64,000 nt of DNA, taken from IMG/VR virus record IMGVR_UViG_2778261375_000003, one strand, 5' to 3'. Positions 34,280 through 55,825 of the stretch are shown here, piece after piece (position 1 is the first letter of the stretch; every line of letters starts with the position of its first letter). Source of the stretch: a virus (Duplodnaviria > Heunggongvirae > Uroviricota > Caudoviricetes). Below the pieces are notes generated by a model, which was given only the letters and a program-made list of their open reading frames with translations, searched no databases and was not told where the DNA came from. The translations under genes and the position numbers were made by a program.

Positions 34280-35347
34280 ATGTCACAGAACTGGATGAGA
34301 CATTTCGAGCTGCAGCTTGTGGACGGGAACGGTCAGGGAATTGAGCTAAGTGATTTCAAAGTCACCTTTACGATCGACTGGTTCAACATCAGCAGCGCGT
34401 CCCGGGTAGGGACTATCAAAATTTATAACCTCTCGGCAGATACTGTGAACCGAATTACCGGGCAAGAGTTTTCGAAAGTGCGTCTGATTGCCGGTTACGA
34501 CGGTATCGCGCCGGAGGTGTCAGCAAGCGACGTCGGGACAGTGCGGGAAGTTGACGCGGCGGACGTGGGCCAGAGTGATGGTCGCAACTACGGACTGATT
34601 TTCAGCGGTGAAATTCGCTACTCGGTTACAGGAAAAGACAGTCCGGTTGATTCCTACGTCCTGATTCAGGCAGCAGATACTGATCTGGCTTTTGCCACCA
34701 GTATAACCTCACAGACGCTGGCTGCCGGTTACACGGTCGCTGATGTAAACCGTGCGCTGATGAAAGACTTCGAAGCCAAAGGCGCGACCGAAGGCCTGAC
34801 GCCTGAAATGCCTGCTACTGTATTCCCCCGGGGGCGGGTACTCTTTGGCATGACGCGGCATCTAATGGATAACGTAGCCGGGCAATGTGGCGCAACATGG
34901 CAATTCGTGGATGGTCAGCGCCAGATGGTGGCGAATAACGAATATGTTCATGAAGCGATTGTGCTCAACAGCGCTACCGGGCTTATTGGCATGCCGCAGC
35001 AGACTATCGGTAACGGCGTAAACGTCCGCGCGCTTATTAATCCGAACATCCGGGTTAACGGACTTATTCAGCTGGATCAGGCTTCCGTGTATCGTACCGC
35101 CTTGTCGAACAACGATATCGCGATGGCCGGTGGGCAGATCACTGACCAGAACACGGACGGAAATATTACGCTAAGCGGCACCACATCGCAGCCTGCCAGC
35201 ATCGCAACGGATGGCGTTTATATTGTGCGCGGGATTATGTACACTGGCGACACAAGGGGCCAGGCGTGGTACATGGATATGATGTGCGAAGCGCGCGGTG
35301 CGGCGGATCTTCGTTCGGCGTCGTCTTTACAGCGTGAGGTAGGATAG
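34280..35347 (+). CDS. Baseplate hub-like protein
   Basis: 355 aa following tape measure and small tail proteins. Confidence 0.5.
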   Translation: MSQNWMRHFELQLVDGNGQGIELSDFKVTFTIDWFNISSASRVGTIKIYNLSADTVNRITGQEFSKVRLIAGYDGIAPEVSASDVGTVREVDAADVGQSDGRNYGLIFSGEIRYSVTGKDSPVDSYVLIQAADTDLAFATSITSQTLAAGYTVADVNRALMKDFEAKGATEGLTPEMPATVFPRGRVLFGMTRHLMDNVAGQCGATWQFVDGQRQMVANNEYVHEAIVLNSATGLIGMPQQTIGNGVNVRALINPNIRVNGLIQLDQASVYRTALSNNDIAMAGGQITDQNTDGNITLSGTTSQPASIATDGVYIVRGIMYTGDTRGQAWYMDMMCEARGAADLRSASSLQREVG

Positions 35348-35700
35348 TGAAAAAGTGGATTGTTATTGGACTCTGTTTCCTTCCGGGGTTCGCATTTGCT
35401 GCGAATCCTGGCGGTGTCACGCTTCAGTGTGGTGGCTACAAATTAGAGTTGATTCCTGATTCATTGTTCAGGATTAATGGTGAGACAGTTACCTCCCAGA
35501 AAATCAAAACGCTCGGCAACGGTAATGGAATGAAGGCGGATATGGGGCTTATGCCAGCCAAAGACGGTAACAATTACGGTTTCGAGTTCATTCGCCGTCC
35601 GGGTACCGAAACGCGATTCCTGAATGTCCAGCTTCTGCAGAACAGCATGGATGCGCCGAAAATCATCGGATCTTTCCCTTGTAAAAAAGTGGCTGGGTGA
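35347..35700 (+). CDS. Secreted small protein with signal peptide (probable moron)
   Basis: GTG start; MKKWIVIGLCFLPGFAFA signal peptide; two Cys; followed by weak hairpin/T-run about 35727-35765. Confidence 0.5.
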   Translation: MKKWIVIGLCFLPGFAFAANPGGVTLQCGGYKLELIPDSLFRINGETVTSQKIKTLGNGNGMKADMGLMPAKDGNNYGFEFIRRPGTETRFLNVQLLQNSMDAPKIIGSFPCKKVAG

Positions 35701-35849
35701 AGGTAACCTGAAATTCGTAACGCCTGAAAAACAACAAAATGTGCTCTAAAAACTGTTGTTTTTTGAGACGAGCGATTACACTGCACTGACTTTTTGATGG
35801 TGGATTGCCATCGATATGCTACTTCATTAAAGCCAGGAATAACTAAAAC

Positions 35850-36581
35850 ATGAGTTTAGCGCAGCCAAAATCAGGAGAACTGTTAGATCTTCTGACTCCT
35901 TCATTAACTAAGGGTGAAAACCTTCTGAGTGAGTTTGAAATCCATCGAATCATTCGTGAAGCGAAGAAACTACCTGAACGTTATCAGGGGCTATCAATTG
36001 AAGGCTTAGCTAAGCTTGTTCTTGGTGAAATAGATGAAGGATGTTCACTCTGTGAGCGGGGGTTGAGAATAGCGCCTAACGATCCAGTTTCTTTTTGTAA
36101 CTATACGATTGCGCTGCGTAACTTAGGTTTGCATGCTCGCCAGTATGTGATGATTCAGAAAGCATCTGATTCACTTAATCCAACGATATTGGCTGAGGTT
36201 GCTACAATTTCTGCATACTGGGTTGATATCGATTTGCTTGAAAAGGTGATGCCGATGCTAACTGCAATGGAAGTACCGCGCCCTGAAGATATGGGCAAAT
36301 GGTATGACACGCTCAATTATCTGCATACCCAAAAAGATCATGCTCAGGAGCTAAAAACTATTGGGCGGCTCATGATGAACGTTGCAGAAAAGTACCGCGC
36401 TCGTCTTGCTGGCGCTCATGCTTTTTATGTAATGTCAGAACTTGATACGCTGTTCGTTGAAGTCAAAACAGACGATCCAGTGCTTCTTTCGCAGATGAAT
36501 AATGCCTTGGCTGATGAGATTATTATTGCGGGGCTTGCGGATTCAGAATGCGTCGGATGCTTTGAAGCCGGGGAACTCTAA
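35850..36581 (+). CDS. Hypothetical helical protein, gene 1 of two-gene moron
   Basis: 243 aa; preceded by 150-bp AT-rich intergenic; stop overlaps next ATG (TAATG). Confidence 0.55.
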   Translation: MSLAQPKSGELLDLLTPSLTKGENLLSEFEIHRIIREAKKLPERYQGLSIEGLAKLVLGEIDEGCSLCERGLRIAPNDPVSFCNYTIALRNLGLHARQYVMIQKASDSLNPTILAEVATISAYWVDIDLLEKVMPMLTAMEVPRPEDMGKWYDTLNYLHTQKDHAQELKTIGRLMMNVAEKYRARLAGAHAFYVMSELDTLFVEVKTDDPVLLSQMNNALADEIIIAGLADSECVGCFEAGEL

Positions 36582-37009
36582 TGTCGGTTGAGCATACCTG
36601 TTTTCTTGAATTGGCTAAGCATTCCCTGGCTCTAAACGGTGAGATGTGGACGAGAAATGCTATTAGCCGAGCATACTATGGTATGTACCATTCCGCCTTA
36701 CGGATCACCAACAATCTGGTACCGACCGCTACACAAGATGGTGAAAAACTAAAAGGTGGAGTTCACATGCGAGTCTATACGGCCTTTTGTAGTGGTGAGG
36801 CAGCTGCACTTAACGATGTTGATGTTAACGCAGTAAAGAAAATCGGCGTTAAACTGAAAATGACGCATGCCCAACGTGTTAATTCTGATTACAAGCTTGA
36901 GCGGAAAATCAACCGGATTACCGCGAGAAGTGTAATTCTGGATGCGGAAGAGGTCGATGCAATCGTTAATCAATTACTGAAGATTGGTGATGACTCGTTA
37001 ACTGCATAA
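36581..37009 (+). CDS. HEPN-like protein, gene 2 of two-gene moron
   Basis: 142 aa; N-terminal helix pair FLELAKHSLALNGEMWTRNAISRAYYGMYHSALRI resembles the HEPN N-terminal pattern; assignment by pattern only. Confidence 0.45.
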   Translation: MSVEHTCFLELAKHSLALNGEMWTRNAISRAYYGMYHSALRITNNLVPTATQDGEKLKGGVHMRVYTAFCSGEAAALNDVDVNAVKKIGVKLKMTHAQRVNSDYKLERKINRITARSVILDAEEVDAIVNQLLKIGDDSLTA

Positions 37010-37030
37010 GCTGAAATTTCTCAAAATTCA

Positions 37031-37055
37031 AACCCGCCACTTGGCGGGTTTTTTG
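37031..37055 (+). terminator. Rho-independent terminator ending the moron cassette
   Basis: aacccgccacttggcgggtt hairpin plus tttttt. Confidence 0.75.
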
Positions 37056-37073
37056 CTTTCTGGAGCCTACTAA

Positions 37074-37826
37074 ATGGCAGTATCTGACCAGACCCGCAGC
37101 GGCGACCTTGCCGAAACATTTAAATCTGAACGGGAAACAACAAAGAACCAGATCCGTGTCGCCTTGCCTGGCATTGTTCAGTCATTCGCTCCTGATGCGG
37201 TGACGGCGGTTGTACAGCCTGCTATCCGTTACGTTGAAATTGATAACGACGGCAACCGCATTACCAAAAATTACCCATTGCTGGTGGATGTGCCAGTGGT
37301 ATTCCCGCGTGGCGGAGGCTGTACGCTAACGTTTCCAGTTAAAGCCGGTGATGAATGTTTGGTGATTTTTGCCGATCGTTGTATTGATTTCTGGTGGCAG
37401 AGTGGCGGGATACAGGAGCCGGTCGATGACAGAATGCATGATTTATCGGATGCGTTTTGTATTGTCGGTCCCCAGTCGCAGGCAAGGAAGATTAGCGGTA
37501 TTAATACCAGTGCCACACAGTTGCGTAGTGATGACGGCAGCACCTATTTTGAGCTTAATCCTGATACCAGGAAAATTAAAATTGTCGCTCCGGGGGGCCT
37601 TGATGTGGTTGCCCCTCTGGCTGATTTTTCTGAGAAAGTAACCATTCATGGCCTGTTAACCTGGATGGGAGGCATGGTGGGGTCTGTTGTTTCTGGTGTG
37701 GCTTCAAAAATCACTGGTGCTGTTGAGTTTTTGGGTAGCGTGAAGGCTAACGGCAAGCCAATCGATGATACGCACACTCATGGTGGTGTTCAGCGCGGTG
37801 GAAGCAATACCGACGGAGTAAAATGA
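37074..37826 (+). CDS. Baseplate central spike protein (gpV / Gp138-N-like)
   Basis: 250 aa, upstream of W- and J-like baseplate genes. Confidence 0.6.
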   Translation: MAVSDQTRSGDLAETFKSERETTKNQIRVALPGIVQSFAPDAVTAVVQPAIRYVEIDNDGNRITKNYPLLVDVPVVFPRGGGCTLTFPVKAGDECLVIFADRCIDFWWQSGGIQEPVDDRMHDLSDAFCIVGPQSQARKISGINTSATQLRSDDGSTYFELNPDTRKIKIVAPGGLDVVAPLADFSEKVTIHGLLTWMGGMVGSVVSGVASKITGAVEFLGSVKANGKPIDDTHTHGGVQRGGSNTDGVK

Positions 37827-41863: not shown

Positions 41864-43798
41864 TTAACAGCCTAACGCTAAAAATGAAGCGCCGAGGCCA
41901 GGAGTACTGGCTCTGGATATAAATTTAACCGGGTCGGGACTAAAACCTGCACAGGCAATATAACCAACAGCCCCGCTATCTGGTGTGTAGTCTTGTGAGA
42001 CCAAAACACGCAGACATCTGTTTGGAAATGCAATCGGGAAATGGGTTACTACATCCTGTGCAATGCCTGGTGCGCCGATTGAGCCCCACTGAAGAATAAA
42101 ACCTGATGGTAATTTTTGATATCCAGTACCTGAAACAGAAAGCGTGAAGCTACCCATATCAGGTATCTGATTCGCCCCTGTCCCTACATTCCTTTTAGCC
42201 GCTTCTCCCAAACCAAGGTATTGGATAACGGCCAGTGTGCTTGTTTTAGCCAGAATATCGCGACCGACTGACGTTAAATCAGTCTGAGCTACCGTATCCT
42301 TACCAGTGAAATAAGGCAGTTTGTTTGCACCAGTCGCAAGGGCAGCGAGAGCGGTTAAAGTTGCATCCAGAGGCTGTTTGCCTGCCAGCGCATTTGTCAT
42401 TGTTGTCGCAAAGTTCGGGTCATTGCCAAGTGCTGCGGCAAGCTCATTCAGGGTATCAAGAGCTTCTGGTGATGAACCAACCAATGCGGATATGGCAGCT
42501 CTTACATAAGCGGTCGTAGCAATCTGCGTGTTATTCGTACCCTGTGCAGCGGTAGGCGCAGTAGGGACACCCGTTAATGCAGGGCTTGCCAAAGGCGCTT
42601 TGAGAGCCAAGGCATTGTTGATAGTTGTGCTGTAATTCGGGTCGTTATTGATCGCAGCAGCTATTTCTTTAAGCGTATCCAGTGTGCCAGGCGCACCGTT
42701 GATAAGTGCAGTTATAGCTGCCTTAACAAAGGCTGTATTTGCGATCTGCGTGTTATTCGTACCCTGTGCAGCGGTAGGCGCAGTAGGTATTCCCGTTAAT
42801 GCAGGACTTGCTAAAGGAGCTTTAAGAGCCAGAGCATTGTTGATAGTTGTGCTGAAATTCGGGTCGTTATTGATCGCAGCAGCTATTTCTTTAAGCGTAT
42901 CCAGTGTGCCAGGTGCACCGTTGATAAGTGCCGTTATAGCTGCCTTAACAAAGGCTGTATTTGCGATCTGCGTGCTATTTGTACCTTGCGCTGCCGTCGG
43001 CGCGGTTGGCGTTCCTGTCAGACTCGGGCTTTCTATTGGCGCTTTGGTATCAGCCAGATCTTTTATAGACTTAACAGCTTTAGGGGTAGCCGCCATTGTT
43101 TCGCTGTCGCTGTTAGTTGCGCTACTGAGCTGAACTAATCCCTTTTGCGTTGTGCTTGCATCCTGTGCCGTATACTTGCTTTTCGCCAGATCGTAGGCTT
43201 TTTTAACTGCCAGCGAACTTGCAGCAACATCACTTCTGGTACTGGTTACAGAGTCTGAAATATCAATGCCGATCGAGCGGTTGATACGCTCGGATGTATC
43301 AATCATCTCCTGGGTAATGGCAGATACACTAGCAGGGATATTCACCGTACAAACAAGCAGCTCCCCATCTCCTAACTGATATGAATCGGTATAGGTTCTG
43401 GCAACAAATTCAGCCGCATGAATATGTGACGCGGTATTCACCTGGTAGGTATCTTCTCCAAGGAGGTATCTTCCCTTCAGCACAATTGCATATTTCTTGC
43501 CTGCACTAAGTGCAAGAGAAATATCCTTACGTTGCTGAATAGTTACCTGGTAAAATTCACCAATATCCACCGACGCCGCGCCTGCGGTTTTATCACCATC
43601 CACTGAGGTAATTAACAGGTTCATCCCACCGCCAGGCTTAGGTAAGAAACCGGCATAAAATCCCGGGTCAACAATCCCCCTGAATTTTCGGTTTAGCGCG
43701 GCTGACAGATATGGTTCGTGGTATTGCACATCGGCCACCAGAGCCAACGACTCGGATGATGGGTAAGTAACCGATGTAACAACTGTAACGTCATTCAT
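41864..43798 (-). CDS. Side tail fiber protein (Stf-like) with internal tandem repeats
   Basis: Start set at MNDVTVVTS; contains ...[25 protein letters not shown]... and ...[35 protein letters not shown]... blocks shared with lambda Stf / P2 H as recalled. Confidence 0.8.
42540..43030. repeat. Tandem coding repeats (about 222-bp unit) within tail fiber gene
   Basis: Near-identical DNA at 42641-42660 and 42863-42882 and surrounding; encode repeated [57 protein letters not shown] units. Confidence 0.75.
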
Positions 43799-43809
43799 CA
43801 AGCATATCC

Positions 43810-44244
43810 TTATGCTGTAGTCGTGTTTATGGCCATAACTGCGGTATATGTTTTGCCCACATACAGCGAGTCTTCCTGGACACAAATAATGGCGATTGGC
43901 TTGTTCTCGTTATCCAGAACAACCAGAGTGTTGAATGGGTAGTTTTTCCCTTCCTGCAACTGGCTTTGATCAAGGTCCATTCGGACAGTAATTATCCCGC
44001 CTGAGTAGGTTGGGACGAGGTTGATGGTGCAAAATTGACTGGTCAGTTCTGCCAGTTCGAAAGCCTTTGGCAGTTCTCCAATCTCATAAGTGCCATCTCC
44101 TTTCTTAGTAACCAGCGAACTGGTACCGAAAACGGCCTTGCTGATTAAAAATCGAGAGCCTTTGTTAATGGACGATTCAGCGCGCCGCTGATAGTAATAG
44201 TCCAACAACTGACTCTTATAGAGGTTTGTTGAGACGTCAGACAT
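43810..44244 (-). CDS. Tail/baseplate-associated hypothetical protein
   Basis: 144 aa immediately upstream of minus-strand tail fiber. Confidence 0.45.
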
Positions 44245-44322
44245 GATTTTCCCTAATCAATGTTGTGAAGCCTCATTGTAAGATAAGTAACTTGTCACCC
44301 CGCCCTGCGGACGGGGTGATTA

Positions 44323-45162
44323 TCAGGCATCACTATCCAGCAGCAAATCATCTGCGCGGGTGCGATCAAACGTAGGCGTTGCTTTCACAATAGTGCCGCC
44401 CGGCGTTGCAGTGATCGGAGCGCTAATCGACGTAACTCCAGTAAGCGAAGTTGTATCCGAAGTTTCAAACCAGCAGTACGCTTTTTCGGTATCAGAAATC
44501 TCGTTCAAAGTGATCATGTCGGCGTGTTCATTTACAACAACCGACAAATAGAGCGTAAGCCCATCAAACACTATATGCAGTGGCAGTAGAGGCTTTACGA
44601 ACTGATTAAACTTTCTGAGAATTTCTTCTGTAATTGCGGACTGATCTATCGTGCCAGTAATCCCCATTGTCCGGGCCAGGTCGTTTATGGGAATACTGAT
44701 CATCCCTCTGGAAGTCAGAAACATCTCGCCGAATGTGCCGCCGGTAGTCTCCAGTGTGCTTTCAGGTATTAGAACCGTGCCATAGGGATGACGCTCAAGG
44801 TCCACCGGTGCATATATCGGATCCCATAAAACAGAAATACCGTTAAATTCGCGGTAAATTGTCTGGTTTATAGGGCGTTCAGTCCCCTTAAAGTGAATCT
44901 CATCAAGACGCTGTTGTAACAACATCGGAACGGAAGATGAGTTCGACGTTCTGATAGTAAAGAACTGGCCAAGTTCATTTGTCCTGGTCTCCAGATCCTC
45001 CTTGCTCATGGAAAAAATAGACTTCCGGTTGGTAATTCGCTCCAACCATGGGTCAACAAAGGTATCCATCATTGACTGAACCAAATCAGCCAATGATTTA
45101 TAGAGCAATGACTTTTGCTTAGCTGATGTAAGCCGGTTATTAAACCAGGAACGCTGCATCAC
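44323..45162 (-). CDS. Baseplate protein (gpI-like position)
   Basis: 279 aa between J-like gene and fiber region on minus strand. Confidence 0.45.
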   Translation of the reverse strand: MMQRSWFNNRLTSAKQKSLLYKSLADLVQSMMDTFVDPWLERITNRKSIFSMSKEDLETRTNELGQFFTIRTSNSSSVPMLLQQRLDEIHFKGTERPINQTIYREFNGISVLWDPIYAPVDLERHPYGTVLIPESTLETTGGTFGEMFLTSRGMISIPINDLARTMGITGTIDQSAITEEILRKFNQFVKPLLPLHIVFDGLTLYLSVVVNEHADMITLNEISDTEKAYCWFETSDTTSLTGVTSISAPITATPGGTIVKATPTFDRTRADDLLLDSDA

Positions 45163-46592
45163 TCCTCCTCATACGAAATATTAAAGGTGGAGTTTTCTGT
45201 ATCCAGATAAACGAAATCGTAAAAGCCGTTGGACTCATTCCACTCGACAAATTCCAGATAAAAGTCGCGGAAATAACCCAGCGTTTCGATAAATGCCCAA
45301 ACGTCTTTTTTCTTGATTAGGATGTACTTGCCAACACGGTTCGGATCAAAGAAAGTTGAGTCACGCCCAAATTTTGTTTCCAGTGCCGACTTCAGCTCAT
45401 CAGTCACGTTCTCAATGGTCAGGCTTGCCGATATCCGCCCGGTGATGGTGATCTTAAAGGGTAGTTTTCTGACCTCTTTATACGAGAATTTCTTGTTCAA
45501 CTCATTCGGCACCTTCTTAAAGGCAGCCAGGATCATTTCTTCAAGCTCTGACTGGCTTTTGTTTGGATGCCATCCTGAAATAAATATCTTATTGATATTC
45601 CGAACATTATAAGCACCATCTAATTTCTCTTGCTGGCCTTCGCCCCATGCCTTTACCCAGGACAGTCCCGGGATGTTACGCACCAGAAAATACGTATAGT
45701 CCCCGCCCCATACGACCTGATCATCATAGGCAAGGTAATATTGTGCACGATTACGTGTGATCTCCGTTGTTTCGGCATCGGTACCTGCGGTTATGGGTGT
45801 CATTGTCTTAACTGAAATCAAATTAGCTAAATTAGCCGCAGAATCGACAGGCGTCAGATTTTGGCCAGCAACCAAGGTTATATCTCCGTTGGTGCACCAT
45901 ACCTTAAGTGTAATGGTCGAGCCTTCTGGCGGTATTTGCCCAATTAGCCCATCACCGAATCGAACCCCCAACTGCTCGGATGGTTTATAAAACTCAACGT
46001 AGACCTGGCTTTTACTACCAGCTAACCGGAACATAGTGCTGGAAGACCACTGCGTGGTCTTACCATCGGTCGTCACGAATACTTCCAGCTTATAGCAGAC
46101 AGCAGTGAGAGCCTTTGATAACACGACTTCCAGAAATTCTTTGGCTGCCGTAACGGTATATGTCACCTCCTGGATTTCCAACTGTGCCACTTCTACCGTA
46201 CCGGTGCCGTCAACCAACCTGCATACATCCATAGTTATGTAAGGGTACTGGTCGTCAGATATTAAAGGCATGTTTTTGGGGATTACCGCTGGAGCATCTT
46301 CACTTGTGGCGGTGATCTCAATCATCCCCGATGACGGTGTTGGCTTGGTACCAACGTAACTATTCGTTTCTGCCGCTGCCAGGATAGAGGAACGCCGCGT
46401 CGCGGTCGATATAAAGCCTTCAGCCAGCGCCGCATCGGCATACTGAAAGCACCTGTAGACAATCTGGGTAATAAACAATGTCAGCATCGAGACAAATTGA
46501 GAGCCGACAAACTTCGACCAGAATGAATCTTTCTCGACAAGCTCTTCAAACTCTGCACGAATACTGTCTTTAGTCGGTGTTGTTTTACTCAT
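45159..46592 (-). CDS. Baseplate J-like protein
   Basis: 477 aa in canonical position of minus-strand tail module. Confidence 0.55.
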   Translation of the reverse strand: MSKTTPTKDSIRAEFEELVEKDSFWSKFVGSQFVSMLTLFITQIVYRCFQYADAALAEGFISTATRRSSILAAAETNSYVGTKPTPSSGMIEITATSEDAPAVIPKNMPLISDDQYPYITMDVCRLVDGTGTVEVAQLEIQEVTYTVTAAKEFLEVVLSKALTAVCYKLEVFVTTDGKTTQWSSSTMFRLAGSKSQVYVEFYKPSEQLGVRFGDGLIGQIPPEGSTITLKVWCTNGDITLVAGQNLTPVDSAANLANLISVKTMTPITAGTDAETTEITRNRAQYYLAYDDQVVWGGDYTYFLVRNIPGLSWVKAWGEGQQEKLDGAYNVRNINKIFISGWHPNKSQSELEEMILAAFKKVPNELNKKFSYKEVRKLPFKITITGRISASLTIENVTDELKSALETKFGRDSTFFDPNRVGKYILIKKKDVWAFIETLGYFRDFYLEFVEWNESNGFYDFVYLDTENSTFNISYEEE

Positions 46593-46948
46593 AGCACCAC
46601 GTCCTGTGTGATAGTTATATCCCTGATACGAATGGATATTTTCAACTTATCAAAAGCATCTCCCTCGGCTACTGACAAGCCAGAAATCGGTATGTCAGGT
46701 AAATCTACCGTCAGTTTTTGCAACAGCATTGCCTCAACCGCAATTTGAACATGCGACAAGTTGGTCGGTTCGTGTTTAAACTGCGGTAAAACATTGCCCC
46801 ATGACGGATCCCCGTATACCTCACCCTGATAAGTGTTTAGCCACTCATATAAACGAGCGCCCCAGGCCTCCTCCTGGGACTCATACGTTTTTACGCCGGA
46901 TAACTCCAGCGTCAGCAAAGGATCAATTTCGTTATTGTTGGCCATCAA
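46589..46948 (-). CDS. Baseplate wedge protein (gpW/gp25-like)
   Basis: 119 aa, coupled between tape-measure-like gene and J-like gene. Confidence 0.5.
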   Translation of the reverse strand: MMANNNEIDPLLTLELSGVKTYESQEEAWGARLYEWLNTYQGEVYGDPSWGNVLPQFKHEPTNLSHVQIAVEAMLLQKLTVDLPDIPISGLSVAEGDAFDKLKISIRIRDITITQDVVL

Positions 46949-49900
46949 TCAACTCTCGCGTAGTCATTCATCAACGGATCATCAATTGACAGTGGTACCG
47001 TGCGCATAACGCCCGGCTGAGGCGTGCTGACCTTTACGACAGTTCCCTGGCCTTTCGCCGAGTCTTTGGTGTGCTCTTCAATCCTGGCAAGCAATGAGGC
47101 CATCTGCGCAAACAGCCGCTTCGTTTCACCATCAAGTGAAACGGTATTATCAGCCAACTGCATTGTCGGCTTGGCACCGGAGCCGCCAAGGTCACTAATA
47201 ACCTGTCCGTCTATCTGCATACGACCGGTTGGTTGCTGCAAATCGTTGGCGGCAGTCGTCACCTTGGACGTGGAGGCTGGTTCAGGCGCATTATTTTTCC
47301 GCATCCCCGGCGAGTTGCGGAGTTTATCGAATAGTCCATCAATCTCCATTTGTGCGCCGAGTTGGTCAAAGTAACTTGAGTTGTTGGCCACCGGACGCGC
47401 CTCTTCAACTGGCATCGGAGTATCAACATACACATTGCCAGCTGCTGTTGCGGTCCCCTTCCCTCGTGCACGTTCTTCGAGCGTTCCCTGAACGACTTCC
47501 CGACGCATACCCCGGCCATTCATGAATTTGTTGACCAGATCGTTAACGCCAACAGCATTGCCGATTTTGTCTACCAGACCGCCTTTCTCAAACGGGCTAT
47601 CACCAGGGGTAAATGCCAGGCCAGTAGACTGATCGATAACAGCGTTATCAGGCAGTGGTCCCCTCACTCCATATTGCGCCCCACCCTGTGCTCCTGCTCC
47701 AGGTGTATAGATTTCACCACCTAAATAGCGAGCACGATGAGTATTGACCTTGATCGCGTACTCACGGTTTTCTTTGGATAAGTCACCTGTGCCTTTTTTC
47801 CACTTATTGATAGTGCCAAACCCAGCGTTATATGCAGTGATGGCCTCGTTTAAGTCTCCATTGGCTTGCTTCAGATACTTGCTCATGAGAAGAGCCGCAG
47901 CTTCTGCCGATTTCACAGGATCAAACGATTCACCTTCAGCTAAGCCAGTCTCTTCACGAGCAATCCCCGTGAACTGAAACATTCCCAGAGCACCGGTTTG
48001 GGATTTTGCATACGGATTACCACCAGATTCAGTTGCAGCAATCGCGTAAAGAGTGCCTTCTGGAAGACCGTATTTATTCTCTAGTTCGGCAAAATACGGA
48101 GCCAACTTATCGAGATTTGCCTTACCTTCAGCGCCAAGACTTCCGACTTTTACATCTAAGTTGCCATTGTTGTAAGTATCCGCAGCTTTCTGAATGTCAT
48201 TCCTGGTGCCAGTAGTATTAAGCGACGATGATGATGAGCTATTTTGACCAATAGCATTATCAATTTTCTGCAACGCGCTATTGCCCGTTTCTACGGCATT
48301 TGCATTGATAATCTGATTGGCAGTTTCTTTAACTGTTTTATTGCTATCTTTCGCCGTATCTAGGGATGCATTTACAACACGAGTGACAATATTAGCCTTT
48401 TTAGGGGTATATTCAGTCTTAGGAGCATTGTCCTCCTGACTTTCTTTAGCTGGTGTTTTTAATTCAGGTGTAACCTCTTTCGCATCCGCTTTGTTGACTA
48501 GCTTTGATGCAACCCAGGCCACAGGGGTGCTCTGAACAGCGGCATCTGCAACCTCACCTGAAAGCTCTTTTGCGGCACTCCATAGATTACTGCCAGCTTC
48601 TTTAATGTATTTCCCTGGGTTCTTAATGAAATCAATTGCACTATCAATTGCATCACTGAAAACCTGTTTCAGGTTATCGACAGTAAAGAAGTTTTTGATG
48701 GCGTCTAATTTTTCGTTCAGGTTCTTTGTTGTGTCACTGAACCATGCTGAAATAGCATCACCAATCTTTGCAGTATAATCACTAAATGTCGTGGATATAG
48801 TATCACCAAGGTTAGAAATATATGTTTCTAAATTGGTAATCCCACTATCAATGGCCTGGGCAATACTTTCCGTCGAAAATGATTGCAACATATTGCCGAT
48901 ATCCTCAAATCCAAGTGATTTGAGAACGCCGCCAATGGCACTGCTAATACCAGATACCAGTCCTCCCATATCGAGAACGTTAGCCAGTGTATAAGCCGCT
49001 TTTTGCTGAAAAGATGGATCTTCCCCATCCTTAAGCCCAAAGGTCCGACGTTGTGCTTCTGTATCATTCCAACCGGTTACCGCATCATAGATACCTCCAG
49101 CCACCGTGCCGACTAGCGGAATTGCGCGTAAAGCCCCCTTTGCAAGAGCCTTAACACCTAGTTTCCCCAATCCCTTAGTTGCAAGTTTTCCGGCACCGCG
49201 AGTAGCCAATTCGCCAGCTTCTTTGGCAGCAGCTTTTTTCCCACCAAAGCCCAATAAGCTTGCAACTTTTTTTATACCTAAAGCGCCTAGTGCCATCGAG
49301 CCAACTTTCTTTAGTACCCCACGGCCAAAAATAAGGGAAGCAATACCACCGGCCCCCTTCCCTAACAGGCTAAATAGTTTGGACAGCAAGCCGCCCTTCT
49401 TTTTCCCGGTGTTTTTGGCTATCTGATCAAGGGCGCTGAGAATCTTGTCATTGCCCTCTTTAATTTCGCTGGTCTGCTCCTGAAGTTCCTGAACCGTCCG
49501 TTTTTGGGTGTTAACCTGAACGACATCGGCACTATTTTGCGATTTACGCCTAAAAAAACCTTTTCTACGGCTGTTATCGTCATTGCCACGAATCACATCG
49601 GCAATAGACTTTCTGGCACCATTAAGCGATCCACCAACTTCTTTTGATATCCCGCCAAGCTCCTTCCCTGCTGCCCACAATGGACCAGCAACGGCATAAC
49701 CTAACGCATCGACGGCACGAGTCTCTGAAGGGTTACCTATGCCTTCAGCTACTTTTGACAGTTTTTTTAATAAACCTGATTCAGCATTTAGACGCTCATC
49801 ATCCTCTTTGCGCCTGGCCTTTTCAGCACGTTCAGCACGGGCATCTTCCGCTGCGGCCTTACTCCCTGACTTTCCAATAAAACGACCACGCGCATCGCGT

Positions 49901-50640
49901 TGGTTTTGGCTTTTTTGCGCACCGCCTTTTTGATCGAACATTTTGCGAGCGTGTTCGGCTGCTTCGGTCCGTTGTGCCTTTATATCCTCTGGTATAGCCT
50001 TCCTGCGTCGTTTTTTACCCTTTGGTGTAGTTGATTTGGCCTGCTGTTCCTGTTGAGCAATGCCCTCCTGAACTACACGAGAAACGTCCCCTAAATTAAG
50101 CCGTTTCATTGCATCAACAATAGGGTCTACTGATGGCGCATTGGCCACAAAGTCTGGCCGGGAATTTTCGATTGTTCGATTTAATGCCGACACACTGCGA
50201 GATACTGGGTCAACCGTTGCAACGCGTTCCCCTTTCAAATCACGATCGAGTTTGACCGTTTCTAACCGCTGTGCTTTAACATCCTCTGTTATTGCCTCTC
50301 TTCGTCTATTTGGGGGATTGTGCGCTGTTGGTGCAGCCTGCTGTTCACGGTTAGTGACTTTGTCCTCCCGTATACGAGAAACGTCCCCTAAATTAAGCCG
50401 TTTCATTGCGTCAACAATAGAGTCCACTGATGGCGCATTGGTCACAAAGTCAGGACGTGAATTTTCGATTGTGCGATTTAATGCCGACACACTGCGAGAG
50501 ACAGGATCAACAGTTGCAACTCGTTCCCCTTTCAAATCTTCAACAGCTTCCCGAATACCTGCAAGCTCTTCCAGCTCTTTCGCGCTGGCGGTTTCAACTG
50601 TCCTTATAACATCGTCAATATTGGCGTTTTTTCTTTCCAT
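46945..50640 (-). CDS. Tape-measure-like protein with lytic transglycosylase (SLT) domain
   Basis: 1231 aa; SLT-like block ...AIAATESGGNPYAKSQTGALGMFQF...AYNAG...; Gly/Ala-rich helical stretches; two copies of an N-terminal repeat of about 55 aa. Confidence 0.6.
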   Translation of the reverse strand: MERKNANIDDVIRTVETASAKELEELAGIREAVEDLKGERVATVDPVSRSVSALNRTIENSRPDFVTNAPSVDSIVDAMKRLNLGDVSRIREDKVTNREQQAAPTAHNPPNRRREAITEDVKAQRLETVKLDRDLKGERVATVDPVSRSVSALNRTIENSRPDFVANAPSVDPIVDAMKRLNLGDVSRVVQEGIAQQEQQAKSTTPKGKKRRRKAIPEDIKAQRTEAAEHARKMFDQKGGAQKSQNQRDARGRFIGKSGSKAAAEDARAERAEKARRKEDDERLNAESGLLKKLSKVAEGIGNPSETRAVDALGYAVAGPLWAAGKELGGISKEVGGSLNGARKSIADVIRGNDDNSRRKGFFRRKSQNSADVVQVNTQKRTVQELQEQTSEIKEGNDKILSALDQIAKNTGKKKGGLLSKLFSLLGKGAGGIASLIFGRGVLKKVGSMALGALGIKKVASLLGFGGKKAAAKEAGELATRGAGKLATKGLGKLGVKALAKGALRAIPLVGTVAGGIYDAVTGWNDTEAQRRTFGLKDGEDPSFQQKAAYTLANVLDMGGLVSGISSAIGGVLKSLGFEDIGNMLQSFSTESIAQAIDSGITNLETYISNLGDTISTTFSDYTAKIGDAISAWFSDTTKNLNEKLDAIKNFFTVDNLKQVFSDAIDSAIDFIKNPGKYIKEAGSNLWSAAKELSGEVADAAVQSTPVAWVASKLVNKADAKEVTPELKTPAKESQEDNAPKTEYTPKKANIVTRVVNASLDTAKDSNKTVKETANQIINANAVETGNSALQKIDNAIGQNSSSSSSLNTTGTRNDIQKAADTYNNGNLDVKVGSLGAEGKANLDKLAPYFAELENKYGLPEGTLYAIAATESGGNPYAKSQTGALGMFQFTGIAREETGLAEGESFDPVKSAEAAALLMSKYLKQANGDLNEAITAYNAGFGTINKWKKGTGDLSKENREYAIKVNTHRARYLGGEIYTPGAGAQGGAQYGVRGPLPDNAVIDQSTGLAFTPGDSPFEKGGLVDKIGNAVGVNDLVNKFMNGRGMRREVVQGTLEERARGKGTATAAGNVYVDTPMPVEEARPVANNSSYFDQLGAQMEIDGLFDKLRNSPGMRKNNAPEPASTSKVTTAANDLQQPTGRMQIDGQVISDLGGSGAKPTMQLADNTVSLDGETKRLFAQMASLLARIEEHTKDSAKGQGTVVKVSTPQPGVMRTVPLSIDDPLMNDYARVD

Positions 50641-50721
50641 GATCTTATCGCCTACCGTTTCGGTTTAAGTTTTTCTTCCAGTTTCTCCAACAGGAAAAAC
50701 GCATAGGATTCAGTAAGCCTT

Positions 50722-51603
50722 TCAGCGTCCTGAATCGGTATACCCCCATACAAAACCAGGTTGGACACTAAGGTCTGATAGCTTTTCAATCCCCACCTGT
50801 GGAATGAAGTCGGTAGCCCGAAAGGGCACCCACAGACGGGTATATGCACCCTCTGTGGACTCCTTTTTATCCTGATTTGGGCATTTATGCGGCGGGAGAC
50901 GAAGACGCATTTCACCTTTATCGATGTAGCACGGTAAACCATGTTCGAGCTTTTCATGAGCCAGTCGGATGTGTGCCGCCAGCTTCATAAATTCAGTATC
51001 AATGGCCATCCGTTTAATCGTTTCATAACGACGCTCAGCCTGATCTTCACGAGTACCGCTAACATCGTTATAAAGCTCACACTGATAAGCGAATTCCCAA
51101 AAACGCAAATCAACGATCGCTTCTTTGAATTCCGCGTCGTCTTCAGGTGGCAATGCTGCACGGCGCATCTCCAGCATTTCCATTGCCCAACCATCAAGCG
51201 GCACGATACGCCATTGATAAGGTACTCCCTCTACAGACACCTCAATATCGTCAATGAAAGGTTCCACTTCCAGGACCTGGATATCTTCAGCCAGAGCATT
51301 CATATCGCAATCGTAATAATGCTCTTTACCGCAATGTTTACAGGTGTAGGTGAATGTCTCGACCGGTGTTTCACGGGAGCCGGTAAATATCCACCATAAC
51401 GCGGTAATCCGGTCCTGCGCCGTCCATGTCAGGGGATCATGTTTCGCGGGTTCAGCAAGCAAGGCTTTTAAATACGCCGTTGTCTGTTGTTCTTGTTCCT
51501 CCGGTGTTATCGAGTTGAAACGCATCGCATCAGCAATATTTGGCTGACGGAACTGGATCAATTCAGTTGGCCGCGATGGTAGCGGGAAAAGAGGTAAAAG
51601 CAT
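50722..51603 (-). CDS. Phage tail-associated hypothetical protein (possible chaperone)
   Basis: 293 aa directly upstream of tape-measure-like gene. Confidence 0.4.
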   Translation of the reverse strand: MLLPLFPLPSRPTELIQFRQPNIADAMRFNSITPEEQEQQTTAYLKALLAEPAKHDPLTWTAQDRITALWWIFTGSRETPVETFTYTCKHCGKEHYYDCDMNALAEDIQVLEVEPFIDDIEVSVEGVPYQWRIVPLDGWAMEMLEMRRAALPPEDDAEFKEAIVDLRFWEFAYQCELYNDVSGTREDQAERRYETIKRMAIDTEFMKLAAHIRLAHEKLEHGLPCYIDKGEMRLRLPPHKCPNQDKKESTEGAYTRLWVPFRATDFIPQVGIEKLSDLSVQPGFVWGYTDSGR

Positions 51604-51617
51604 CCTTGCTCCTTAAT

Positions 51618-52229
51618 TCAAAGAGAAAAGCTAAAGCCCAGAAGGGAAGCCAAAGAACTTGAGGATTGGTTAAACGTGCTGTGCAATGCGAAGGTCATTG
51701 GGAATGACTTAAATTCAGTAACCTGATCTCGCGCATAGGTGACATCGCCGGTAGTGACCGGGAATACCGTCATCTCATTTTCCAGTTTGGTTAAGCCGGA
51801 AGACAGCAACCGATAAATACGCACATTGAGCAAATATTTAGACGGTATATTCCCGGTACCGTCCGGATTGATCACCCGACTTTTTGCCGTCTTAAACCAG
51901 TCCAAAACGAGGCCATCAACGGTATCCCTGACCATCATTGTTATCTGCCCAGGCGAACGCTCCGTTGGTTGAAGGATATTCCCTCCGCCGATTTTAATCG
52001 TTTCATATTCGATGCTGTAATCGTGGTAGGTAATGTCTTTGGCAAAGAAGTCTGCCCCCTCCAGTCCATCAACTTCGACAGAGAACTGCCATCCTTGCGC
52101 GAACAGCATTTTGTTCATGATGATTGACGTCAGCTTACCAACTTCCCGCTCACCAACGCCGGAGCCAAATAATGTCGTCGTTAATGCCGAAGATACATAA
52201 GACTTTACTGAAGCAACATTAAGCCCCAT
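51618..52229 (-). CDS. Phage structural hypothetical protein (possible tube)
   Basis: 203 aa in minus-strand tail module. Confidence 0.35.
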   Translation of the reverse strand: MGLNVASVKSYVSSALTTTLFGSGVGEREVGKLTSIIMNKMLFAQGWQFSVEVDGLEGADFFAKDITYHDYSIEYETIKIGGGNILQPTERSPGQITMMVRDTVDGLVLDWFKTAKSRVINPDGTGNIPSKYLLNVRIYRLLSSGLTKLENEMTVFPVTTGDVTYARDQVTEFKSFPMTFALHSTFNQSSSSLASLLGFSFSL

Positions 52230-52239
52230 ATCAGCCCCC

Positions 52240-52830
<591 letters not shown>

Positions 52831-54563: not shown

Positions 54564-54785
54564 ATGGTTAATGCCAATCCTTGCGCACGCCAAGAATTCA
54601 TCTGGCGTTTCTATTCCTGTAAAAAACACCACTATCACTTCGTCATCGCAGCAACAGAAGACGAAGCACGCTCTCAATTGCCTGATGGCCCCTGCATTTT
54701 TACTGCCCGTTTTTCAACTAACTCGCGCAATTCACTTAGTTACTGGAACCTCCCCTTCTCTGCCGACGTTCAGGGGGATTTATGA
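54564..54785 (+). CDS. Icd-like small protein (putative cell division inhibitor family)
   Basis: 73 aa; EFIWRFYS...HFVIAATEDEARSQL...TARF fits remembered Icd-like pattern; gagg RBS; ATGA-coupled to antirepressor. Confidence 0.4.
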   Translation: MVNANPCARQEFIWRFYSCKKHHYHFVIAATEDEARSQLPDGPCIFTARFSTNSRNSLSYWNLPFSADVQGDL

Positions 54786-55825
54786 AAAAACCTCTCGTCA
54801 CCCGTAATGAAATAGCCGAAGCGATCGCCCTGCATACAACCTGTATGCCGACACGGGAGATCCCCGGCGCAATTGCCAACTATTTCATGATAACCAGACG
54901 TTTTTATACCCGAACAGATAAGGCTGTGATCAACAAGCTACTGATAGCCGAGATCAGGGATTATTTGATTGAACAAGGACGTCTACGTTACGCAACAGTG
55001 GCAGCAGAAATGAGAAAGGAGGCGCGCAGAATGACCGGTAATAATTTGAATGTTGAAAAACCAGCACCTGTTGCTTCAGCTACGCCATCACCAGCTGTGA
55101 ATGTTATCTCCAACACTGGAGACACAATCGACAGCCAGACACTGTTAAAGATGGTCAATGAAGCTCGTAAGTTATGTGGGGAACCAGAGGTTCGGAACAA
55201 CAAATTCATCGAAAAAATACTCGACGAATTAGAAGGTGAGGACGGTTACACAAAAAGTGCAACCGTGCCGCCAGGTGGCGGTACGCCTATGGTTGTCATA
55301 ACCATGACCTACAAACAAGCCCTGCGAGTCGCCGCACGCGAATCAAAAGCCGTCCGCCGTTCGCTGATCGACAAACTGGAAGAATTGCAGCAGGCAAACT
55401 CCCCTGCCCCATCGATCCCCCAAACATTACCAGAAGCTCTACGCCTGGCTGCCGAGTTGGCAGAACAGAAAATGCAGCTGGAACAACAGCTGGTGGCCGC
55501 CGCTCCTAAAGTCGATTTTGCCGACCGGGTATCAGTGGCTAATGGAATCCTGATCGGGAACTTTGCAAAGGTCGTTGGACTTAAGCAAAACGCCCTTTTC
55601 TCATGGTTGCGCCAGAACGGCATTCTCATGGCTTTTGGTGCGCGCAAAAACGTACCGCGCCAACAGTACATCAACGCCGGGTATTTCACGGTGAAAGAAG
55701 TGGTGCTGGATGATGAAAATGGCTACCAGATACGGCTGACGCCCCAATTAACGGGTAAAGGCCAGCAGTGGTTAACTCGCAAGCTACTTGATGCTGGTTT
55801 GTTAAAACCAGTAGCAATAGGTTAA
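54782..55825 (+). CDS. Phage antirepressor with KilA-C/ANT C-terminal domain
   Basis: C-terminal 130 aa (LPEALRLAAELAEQK...GYFTVKEVV...TGKGQQWL) match the ANT/KilA-C pattern and are paralogous to next gene. Confidence 0.7.
   Translation: MKKPLVTRNEIAEAIALHTTCMPTREIPGAIANYFMITRRFYTRTDKAVINKLLIAEIRDYLIEQGRLRYATVAAEMRKEARRMTGNNLNVEKPAPVASATPSPAVNVISNTGDTIDSQTLLKMVNEARKLCGEPEVRNNKFIEKILDELEGEDGYTKSATVPPGGGTPMVVITMTYKQALRVAARESKAVRRSLIDKLEELQQANSPAPSIPQTLPEALRLAAELAEQKMQLEQQLVAAAPKVDFADRVSVANGILIGNFAKVVGLKQNALFSWLRQNGILMAFGARKNVPRQQYINAGYFTVKEVVLDDENGYQIRLTPQLTGKGQQWLTRKLLDAGLLKPVAIG

Follow-up and report, generated by a model that had tools for sequence, protein, structure and literature searches.

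Candidate HEPN defence systems are common. The locus analysed here is a two-gene cassette (genes A and B) carried in 64,000 nt of Escherichia coli prophage DNA (IMG/VR record IMGVR_UViG_2778261375_000003); this whole stretch is referred to as the window, and coordinates are counted from its first letter. Gene A encodes a predicted TPR protein and gene B a predicted HEPN-fold protein. The cassette is a mobile accessory element, and we hold with about even confidence that it is a toxin-antitoxin-like abortive-infection moron formed by TPR protein A and HEPN effector B.

The nearest described relatives of B belong to the AF0298 family. Members of this family, like AbiV, have lost the histidine of the HEPN motif, keep its arginine and have a second conserved histidine N-terminal to the motif, which was proposed to be part of a possible alternative active site (Anantharaman et al. 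2013). Both signature stretches of B align with AF0298 (AYYxMxH in helix 2 and R-x3-D-Y in helix 4), and in both proteins the motif histidine is lost and the upstream histidine conserved. B is, however, just 19% identical to AF0298, and the window B falls below every Pfam and NCBIfam threshold. The AF0298 family is normally paired or fused with MNT in archaea and thermophiles, whereas the partner here is a TPR protein and the host a gammaproteobacterial temperate phage. AbiV, a bona fide anti-phage abortive-infection protein, is likewise a HEPN protein without the motif histidine and with a conserved upstream histidine (Anantharaman et al. 2013); it differs in being a single gene of other size and host range, and its structural match to B is weak (9bj7, Foldseek probability 0.20, TM-score ~0.4).

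HepT/MntA differs from the pair in two respects. A/B has no MNT partner, and none of the inspected loci showed an MNT gene next to the pair. B carries Rx4Y in place of the RX4HXY motif, which holds the catalytic histidine and the AMPylated tyrosine, so neutralisation by AMPylation is not expected. HepS (Gifsy-1 prophage) and Tha (S. aureus prophages) are prophage HEPN abortive-infection RNases triggered by tail proteins. They resemble B as prophage HEPN proteins carried as accessory cargo, and the logic proposed below for A/B, from dormancy through activation by a phage protein to RNA cleavage, is theirs. Both are single proteins with a canonical Rx4H (R100-H105 and R265-H270) and without detectable sequence similarity to B; in A/B a separate TPR protein would supply the sensing or the inhibition.

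For the location of the cassette, the closest precedents are the P2 gpQ-gpA and P4 psu-int hotspots, of which the gpQ-gpA locus is a validated anti-phage hotspot in E. coli P2-like prophages (Rousset et al. 2022). The slot occupied by A/B shares with these hotspots presence/absence polymorphism, low guanine-plus-cytosine (GC) content, an end terminator and many alternative cargos, and diverged A/B members themselves reside in the gpQ-gpA locus of Vibrio prophages. The pair is not among the systems named in the main text of Rousset et al. 2022, and no description of the hub-spike slot of Brunovirus-like prophages as a hotspot was found in the literature searched.

No curated defence-system model matching the pair was found in PADLOC-DB v2.0, in which the window A and its diverged homologues gave isolated weak matches. 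Searchable literature on HEPN+TPR systems, UPF0332, COG1895 and SEN34/Brunovirus hotspots did not describe the pair. DefensePredictor DS-28 has a different HEPN (RNSVAH) and a different partner. TPR, two-gene systems, TaiB, tail modules and baseplates are not mentioned in the Tai tail-assembly-interference paper.

Fold and signature residues of protein B

The two genes and the parts of their products referred to below are as follows.

35850 to 36581, plus strand: gene A, predicted TPR protein of 243 aa, proposed partner (antitoxin or sensor) of B
35973 to 36185, plus strand: TPR repeats detectable in sequence, residues ~42-112 of A, from matches to Pfam-confirmed TPR proteins
36405 to 36569, plus strand: predicted C-terminal beta-beta-alpha-beta domain of A, residues 186-240 (~55 residues)
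36581 to 37009, plus strand: gene B, predicted HEPN-fold protein of AF0298/UPF0332 (HEPN-T) type, 142 aa, proposed effector
36665 to 36691, plus strand: helix-2 signature S29-R30-A-Y32-Y33-G-M-Y36-H37, within B
36875 to 36892, plus strand: canonical HEPN motif position R99-V-N-S-D103-Y104 (Rx4Y), within B, with tyrosine where histidine is expected

B was modelled with AlphaFold2 on 20 homologues (predicted local distance difference test score, pLDDT, 90.7). In the model the protein has the HEPN fold, an all-alpha up-down helical bundle with HEPN topology; further fold matches were to TT1696, SsR10, ST0689, the HEPN domains of sacsin and Roquin, LsoA, HepT and Csm6, and Foldseek was concordant. 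When a B-family profile was compared with PDB sequences, 2hsb (AF0298) was the sole match (E 0.14 with the A1 profile). In the 2hsb alignment SRAYYxMYH of helix 2 corresponds to AYYAMFH, and R-V-x-A-D-Y of helix 4 to R-E-E-S-D-Y. Sequence searches of Pfam, NCBIfam and PDB with B itself returned nothing above threshold. PF05168 was matched by 2 of 20 close B homologues at a weak E of 0.14 and was not matched by the window B; two diverged relatives carry a precomputed PF05168 match, and some are labelled UPF0332 or HEPN by JGI and NCBI. Its fold and signature residues make B a divergent AF0298-type HEPN protein; the curated profile thresholds do not.

Conservation was scored over 38 distinct B sequences reaching down to ~20% identity. 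Eleven residues are invariant (R25, S29, R30, Y32, Y33, H62, L92, R99, D103, Y104 and A115), and H37 is conserved in 97% of the sequences. The canonical Rx4-6H motif lies ~70% along the HEPN domain. At this position diverged alleles read R-N-E-A-D-Y, and histidine was seen in none of the 38 sequences; the catalytic motif is thus absent from its canonical place. The pattern described for the AF0298 type is present, with R99 invariant, H37 aligned to the histidine of AYYAMFH and H62 also invariant. Judged from these residues, catalysis by B is possible.

A preliminary description of this DNA, made from the letters alone, had proposed a HEPN-like second protein and had pointed to an R-x6-H spacing (RAYYGMYH). 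The fold was borne out by the AlphaFold2 model and by Foldseek. The string exists and hardly varies, but its place is helix 2: R30-x6-H37 fits the regular expression and was rejected as the canonical motif, which aligns with R99-VNSD-Y104. What survives of that claim is H37 itself, which corresponds to the N-terminal histidine of the AF0298 family (Anantharaman et al. 2013).

Protein A and the pairing of the two genes

The AlphaFold2 model of A (pLDDT 90.1) comprises ten helices (residues 7-181), followed by strands at 186-194 and 198-205, a helix at 210-226 and a strand at 234-240. Foldseek matches of A in PDB were exclusively TPR proteins. The A2 profile was searched against 1.84 billion representative proteins; full-length relatives were all 236-276 aa and without fusions, and long, Pfam-confirmed multi-TPR proteins were matched repeatedly at profile positions 42-112. 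A weak TPR_17 match was found at residues 67-95, and A was assigned to phrog_22649. Pfam, NCBIfam and PDB sequence searches with A returned nothing above threshold. By its model, A combines TPR repeats with a small alpha/beta domain at the C-terminus, and it is not a nucleotidyltransferase.

Conservation within A is widest in the C-terminal domain (N217, L220, C234, G236 and F238). Its N and L are invariant in the diverged A-like set, and a BLAST comparison of A with the allele of strain E2348/69 aligned this domain only. A degenerate MNT was considered for the domain and rejected, as it has ~55 residues, no acidic pair conserved across alleles and no nucleotidyltransferase match. No DNA-binding domain (helix-turn-helix, ribbon-helix-helix or AbrB) was found in A by Pfam or in the model.

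Relatives of B are encoded on 59 viral contigs and at genomic loci. At all 70 B-bearing loci (B identities of 27-100%), where upstream DNA was present, an A-like open reading frame (ORF) of 243-298 aa overlaps or abuts the start of B. The A-B gap ranged from -77 to +4 nt over 36 distinct pairs, the larger overlaps arising partly from B having been called at its longest possible start. The diverged upstream ORFs were aligned to A by hhalign with a probability of 99.3% (E 1e-20, 236 columns) and are true homologues. Identities of A and B co-vary (Spearman 0.85, 595 comparisons); B was the more conserved of the two in 93% of these comparisons, and A diverges faster. Co-occurrence in other prophages had been suggested as a check on the pair, and strict pairing with co-divergence was the outcome across the 70 loci. 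Such a pattern would be expected of interacting partners, one of them under diversifying pressure. Of the generic features of type II toxin-antitoxin systems, the pair has two small, co-directional, coupled genes that always occur together and lacks an antitoxin with a DNA-binding domain.

Cassette anatomy, the hub-spike slot and other contexts

The surroundings of the two genes are as follows.

34280 to 35347, plus strand: baseplate hub gene (phrog_196, E 5e-89), left backbone flank, outside the cassette
35347 to 35700, plus strand: ORF of 117 aa (phrog_3443, function not assigned), left part of the variable zone, outside the A/B pair
35701 to 35849, plus strand: AT-rich leader, 149 bp, 37.6% GC
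35728 to 35766, plus strand: A/U-rich hairpin in the leader (-10.4 kcal/mol, z -1.5, not significant)
35794 to 35799 and 35815 to 35820, plus strand: best promoter-like candidate in the leader, TTGATG-N15-TATGCT, weak
35835 to 35838, plus strand: Shine-Dalgarno sequence AGGA in the leader
37030 to 37057, plus strand: rho-independent terminator, right border of the cargo slot, ~20 nt before the spike ATG
37074 to 37826, plus strand: central spike gene (PF18352, E 3.6e-43, and Apex motif), right backbone flank, outside the cassette

The window contains a whole prophage from the integrase (738-1811) onward, with a tail module resembling that of Salmonella phage SEN34 (genus Brunovirus). The hub gene also gave a PF22759 (E217_GP41) match of 22.8 bits, under the cutoff of 27, and the spike gene is labelled membrane-puncturing spike protein in RefSeq. 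Gene A stops and gene B starts within the shared string cTAATGt. Both genes are 44% GC with a third-codon-position GC (GC3) of 0.38-0.41, against 54% GC and a GC3 of 0.60 for the hub. The 117-aa ORF starts directly after the hub and has a signal-peptide-like N-terminus (MKKWIVIGLCFLPGFAFA). The ORF is hypervariable: its identity ranges from 24 to 98% among prophages that share hubs of 96-99% identity, and in one strain an HMG-box protein takes its place, so the variable zone begins at the hub stop codon.

The hub/spike backbone was found in 353 of 5,426 complete E. coli genomes. Among these the A/B allele of the window is present in 33 and the diverged E2348/69-type allele in 7; in the remainder the same slot holds a 190-aa ORF with a YafO-family toxin, or DUF2335, DUF4282, HMG-box or STY1065/STY2022 proteins, and in SEN34 two other small ORFs. 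With these very different cargos the hub remains 96-99% identical. The presence of unrelated cargos in one slot marks the hub-spike junction as a cargo hotspot, and presence or absence between conserved genes of related phages, together with deviant base composition, is the signature of a moron. At some hub-spike loci the flanks are 94-99% identical while B is 27-36% identical, which indicates allele exchange in the same slot. One diverged pair, with B 29% identical, occupies the slot in the prophage of enteropathogenic E. coli E2348/69 (locus L006, 1827-2979). In E. coli CAVP746 (locus L003, 1890-2880) the slot carries the 190-aa ORF, which has no Pfam match, followed by a YafO-family type II toxin gene (PF13957, E 4e-17), possibly another unconventional toxin pair.

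The terminator consists of a 9-bp stem with 6 G-C pairs, a loop of 4 and a T-run, and has a folding energy of -15.7 kcal/mol (z = -5.05), matched by none of 200 shuffles. Together with the 20 nt to the spike ATG it is kept with every cargo type, including that of phage SEN34, the loop alone varying, and the sequence left of this border changes with each cargo type. As the terminator lies ~20 nt ahead of the spike, transcription has to pass it to reach any of the baseplate and tail-fibre genes that follow; antitermination or programmed read-through is therefore implied for this phage lineage. The A/U-rich hairpin of the leader was considered as a further terminator and rejected (z -1.5). Promoter-like sites were better in other alleles. 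The E2348/69 allele carries TTGACT-N18-TAAAAT, scoring 10/12 at ~59 nt upstream of the A start and much better than the candidate in the window; sites of this score and position are present in the E2348/69-type alleles, and several alleles combine a good promoter-like site (10/12) with a terminator of their own.

Of the viral loci with the pair, about three quarters are hub-spike slots. The pair was also found beside the tape measure in lambda-like and other siphovirus tail modules; in the lambdoid nin region between the replication genes and Q, including that of Klebsiella phage vB_Kpn_Chronis; at a prophage end beside the integrase; and, in P2-like prophages of Vibrio cholerae and V. parahaemolyticus, between portal gpQ/ogr and gpA, where it is oriented convergently with gpA. 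In all contexts the GC content of the cassette is below that of its flanks (0.36-0.47 vs 0.44-0.59), and the cassette usually ends in a terminator when co-directional with its neighbours. One phage has two diverged A/B copies in tandem, separated by 2.7 kb, within a Rha/P22-antirepressor region (IMG/VR contig L068, 1040-2234 and 4970-6116).

Much of the anatomy given in the preliminary description was recovered: the AT-rich intergenic region of ~150 bp (149 bp, 37.6% GC), the two translationally coupled genes of 243 and 142 aa with their TAATG overlap, and a strong terminator, which had been placed at 37031-37055 and comprises a hairpin at 37030-37051 and the T-run. The cassette had been placed between the hub-like gene and the central spike gene; both flanks were identified as such, but the 117-aa ORF separates the hub from the spacer. 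The view that neither protein is structural agrees with the absence of the pair from most same-backbone prophages and its presence outside tail operons, and the view of a moron-like cargo position with its replacement by unrelated cargo in related prophages, a YafO-family toxin among them. It had been allowed that homologues might prove to be virion components or that the pair might be confined to tail operons; known virion proteins were absent among the homologues, and the pair also occurs in nin, antirepressor, integrase-end and gpQ-gpA contexts. The notion of a self-contained unit with its own promoter and terminator was weakened, as the promoter is weak here and the terminator is common to all cargos of the slot, for which reason the latter was rejected as evidence of a self-contained cassette.

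A second phage tail cluster lies directly after the tail-fibre assembly gene of the first prophage (window 41864-52806, minus strand). Encoded in it are, among others, a tail fibre of 673 aa bearing Phage_fiber_2 repeats, a wedge protein of the gp6-like kind and an SLT-domain protein of 1231 aa. The two tail regions of the window are thus arranged tail-to-tail, followed by an antirepressor gene (54782-55825).

Proposed mechanism and alternatives

We infer that A and B form a complex, that B is an RNase held in check by A and that the pair has a defence phenotype. A and B would be made together by translational coupling and would associate, with A holding the HEPN protein inactive in the complex. 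Binding of a phage-derived protein by the fast-evolving TPR surface of A, or loss of A, would then free B, which would act on RNA via a non-canonical site formed by R99, D103, Y104, H37, H62 and R30. Either the infected cell or the competing phage would thereby cease to grow, to the benefit of lysogen and prophage. The prophage HEPN precedent of HepS and Tha, both triggered by tail proteins, lends support to this abortive-infection reading. It also draws on what was observed: the anatomy and mobile, accessory status of the cassette, its foreign composition, the HEPN and TPR folds, the strict pairing and co-divergence of A and B, allele swapping in one slot, occurrence in known defence hotspots and the invariant polar set of B (R25, S29, R30, Y32, Y33, H62, R99, D103 and Y104). 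A more specific version is that A/B represents an undescribed two-component prophage immunity family, in which a fast-evolving TPR sensor of an incoming-phage protein controls a His-less AF0298-type HEPN, and that the hub-spike junction is a new hotspot for defence, with alleles traded in the manner of immunity specificities. This version is offered tentatively, at something less than an even chance.

Several observations weigh against abortive infection. With the canonical catalytic histidine missing (Rx4Y), B could be non-catalytic; for AF0298-type HEPNs the alternative active site is a proposal (Anantharaman et al. 2013), not a documented RNase activity. A has neither a DNA-binding domain of the type II-antitoxin kind nor an MNT fold. 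No sigma-70 match of at least 9/12 was found on the plus strand upstream of A, and this allele, being without a convincing sigma-70 promoter, may be expressed only with the late operon. Judged by the comparison of slots, the terminator is a fixed right border and not specific to the cassette. Residence in hotspots is circumstantial, since such slots also carry non-defence morons. In PADLOC-DB v2.0 (2023) the window B gave only a weak HEPN_IX match (E 0.009), and 6 of 18 alleles matched, with a best E of 3e-4. The DefensePredictor supplements, as far as accessible, list neither the RefSeq accessions of the window pair (WP_000050470.1 and WP_000110002.1) nor those of the pair from E2348/69.

A plain toxin-antitoxin addiction module would account for several of the same features. 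B would act as toxin and A as labile antitoxin, with stabilisation of prophage or hotspot DNA as the sole effect and no exclusion of other phages. The two small genes are coupled and co-evolve, the putative antitoxin comes first, the same slot holds a YafO-family type II toxin gene in another cargo, and minimal HEPN proteins of this clade are usually found in HEPN-MNT toxin-antitoxin modules. A, however, has no DNA-binding domain or short disordered toxin-binding tail and at 243 aa is larger than the toxin, and allelic diversification in one slot together with occurrence in the gpQ-gpA hotspot fits an arms race better. We consider addiction unlikely as the explanation, noting that it and defence are not mutually exclusive.

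A role in the lytic cycle or in counter-defence is about equally improbable. The pair would be expressed with the late operon, and a non-catalytic HEPN with a TPR adaptor would bind RNA, nucleotides or a host immune protein and thereby help the phage. This would agree with the absence of the canonical histidine from B and with the window allele lying co-directionally inside the late operon without a clear promoter of its own, as would the majority of occurrences, which are co-oriented in tail modules; the HEPN domain was moreover first defined as a nucleotide- or substrate-binding domain, of which inactive versions exist (Anantharaman et al. 2013). On the other hand, the invariance of eleven B residues (three arginines and H62 included), with H37 at 97%, among alleles 20-30% identical suggests a constrained active or ligand site. 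Several alleles have 10/12 promoter-like sites and their own terminators, and some contexts are not late operons (convergent with gpA, beside the integrase, nin).

A baseplate assembly factor or minor virion component, for instance a TPR chaperone of the hub-spike complex, would suit the position between hub and spike and the frequent role of TPR proteins as chaperones or scaffolds, but is very improbable given that the pair is absent from ~90% of same-baseplate prophages and from virion-forming SEN34, is replaced by unrelated genes, has a foreign base composition and also occurs in siphoviruses, P2-like phages and early regions.

If the cassette is a defence or toxin module, it would add a new partner class for HEPN systems, with TPR instead of MNT, and would provide a tractable E. 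coli model for the question of nuclease activity in His-less AF0298/UPF0332-type HEPNs. The hub-spike junction of a common enterobacterial prophage lineage would then be a cargo hotspot worth mining, and its other cargos (the YafO-toxin pair, DUF2335, DUF4282, STY1065/STY2022 and HMG-box proteins) are as little characterised as A/B. The many diverged alleles between identical flanks would also be a natural series in which specificity could be mapped. Should A/B not serve defence, the cassette would still be a clean example of a moron moving between very different phage backbones; should it prove to be a two-component immunity system, it would give this HEPN clade its first biological role and activity outside MNT pairing.

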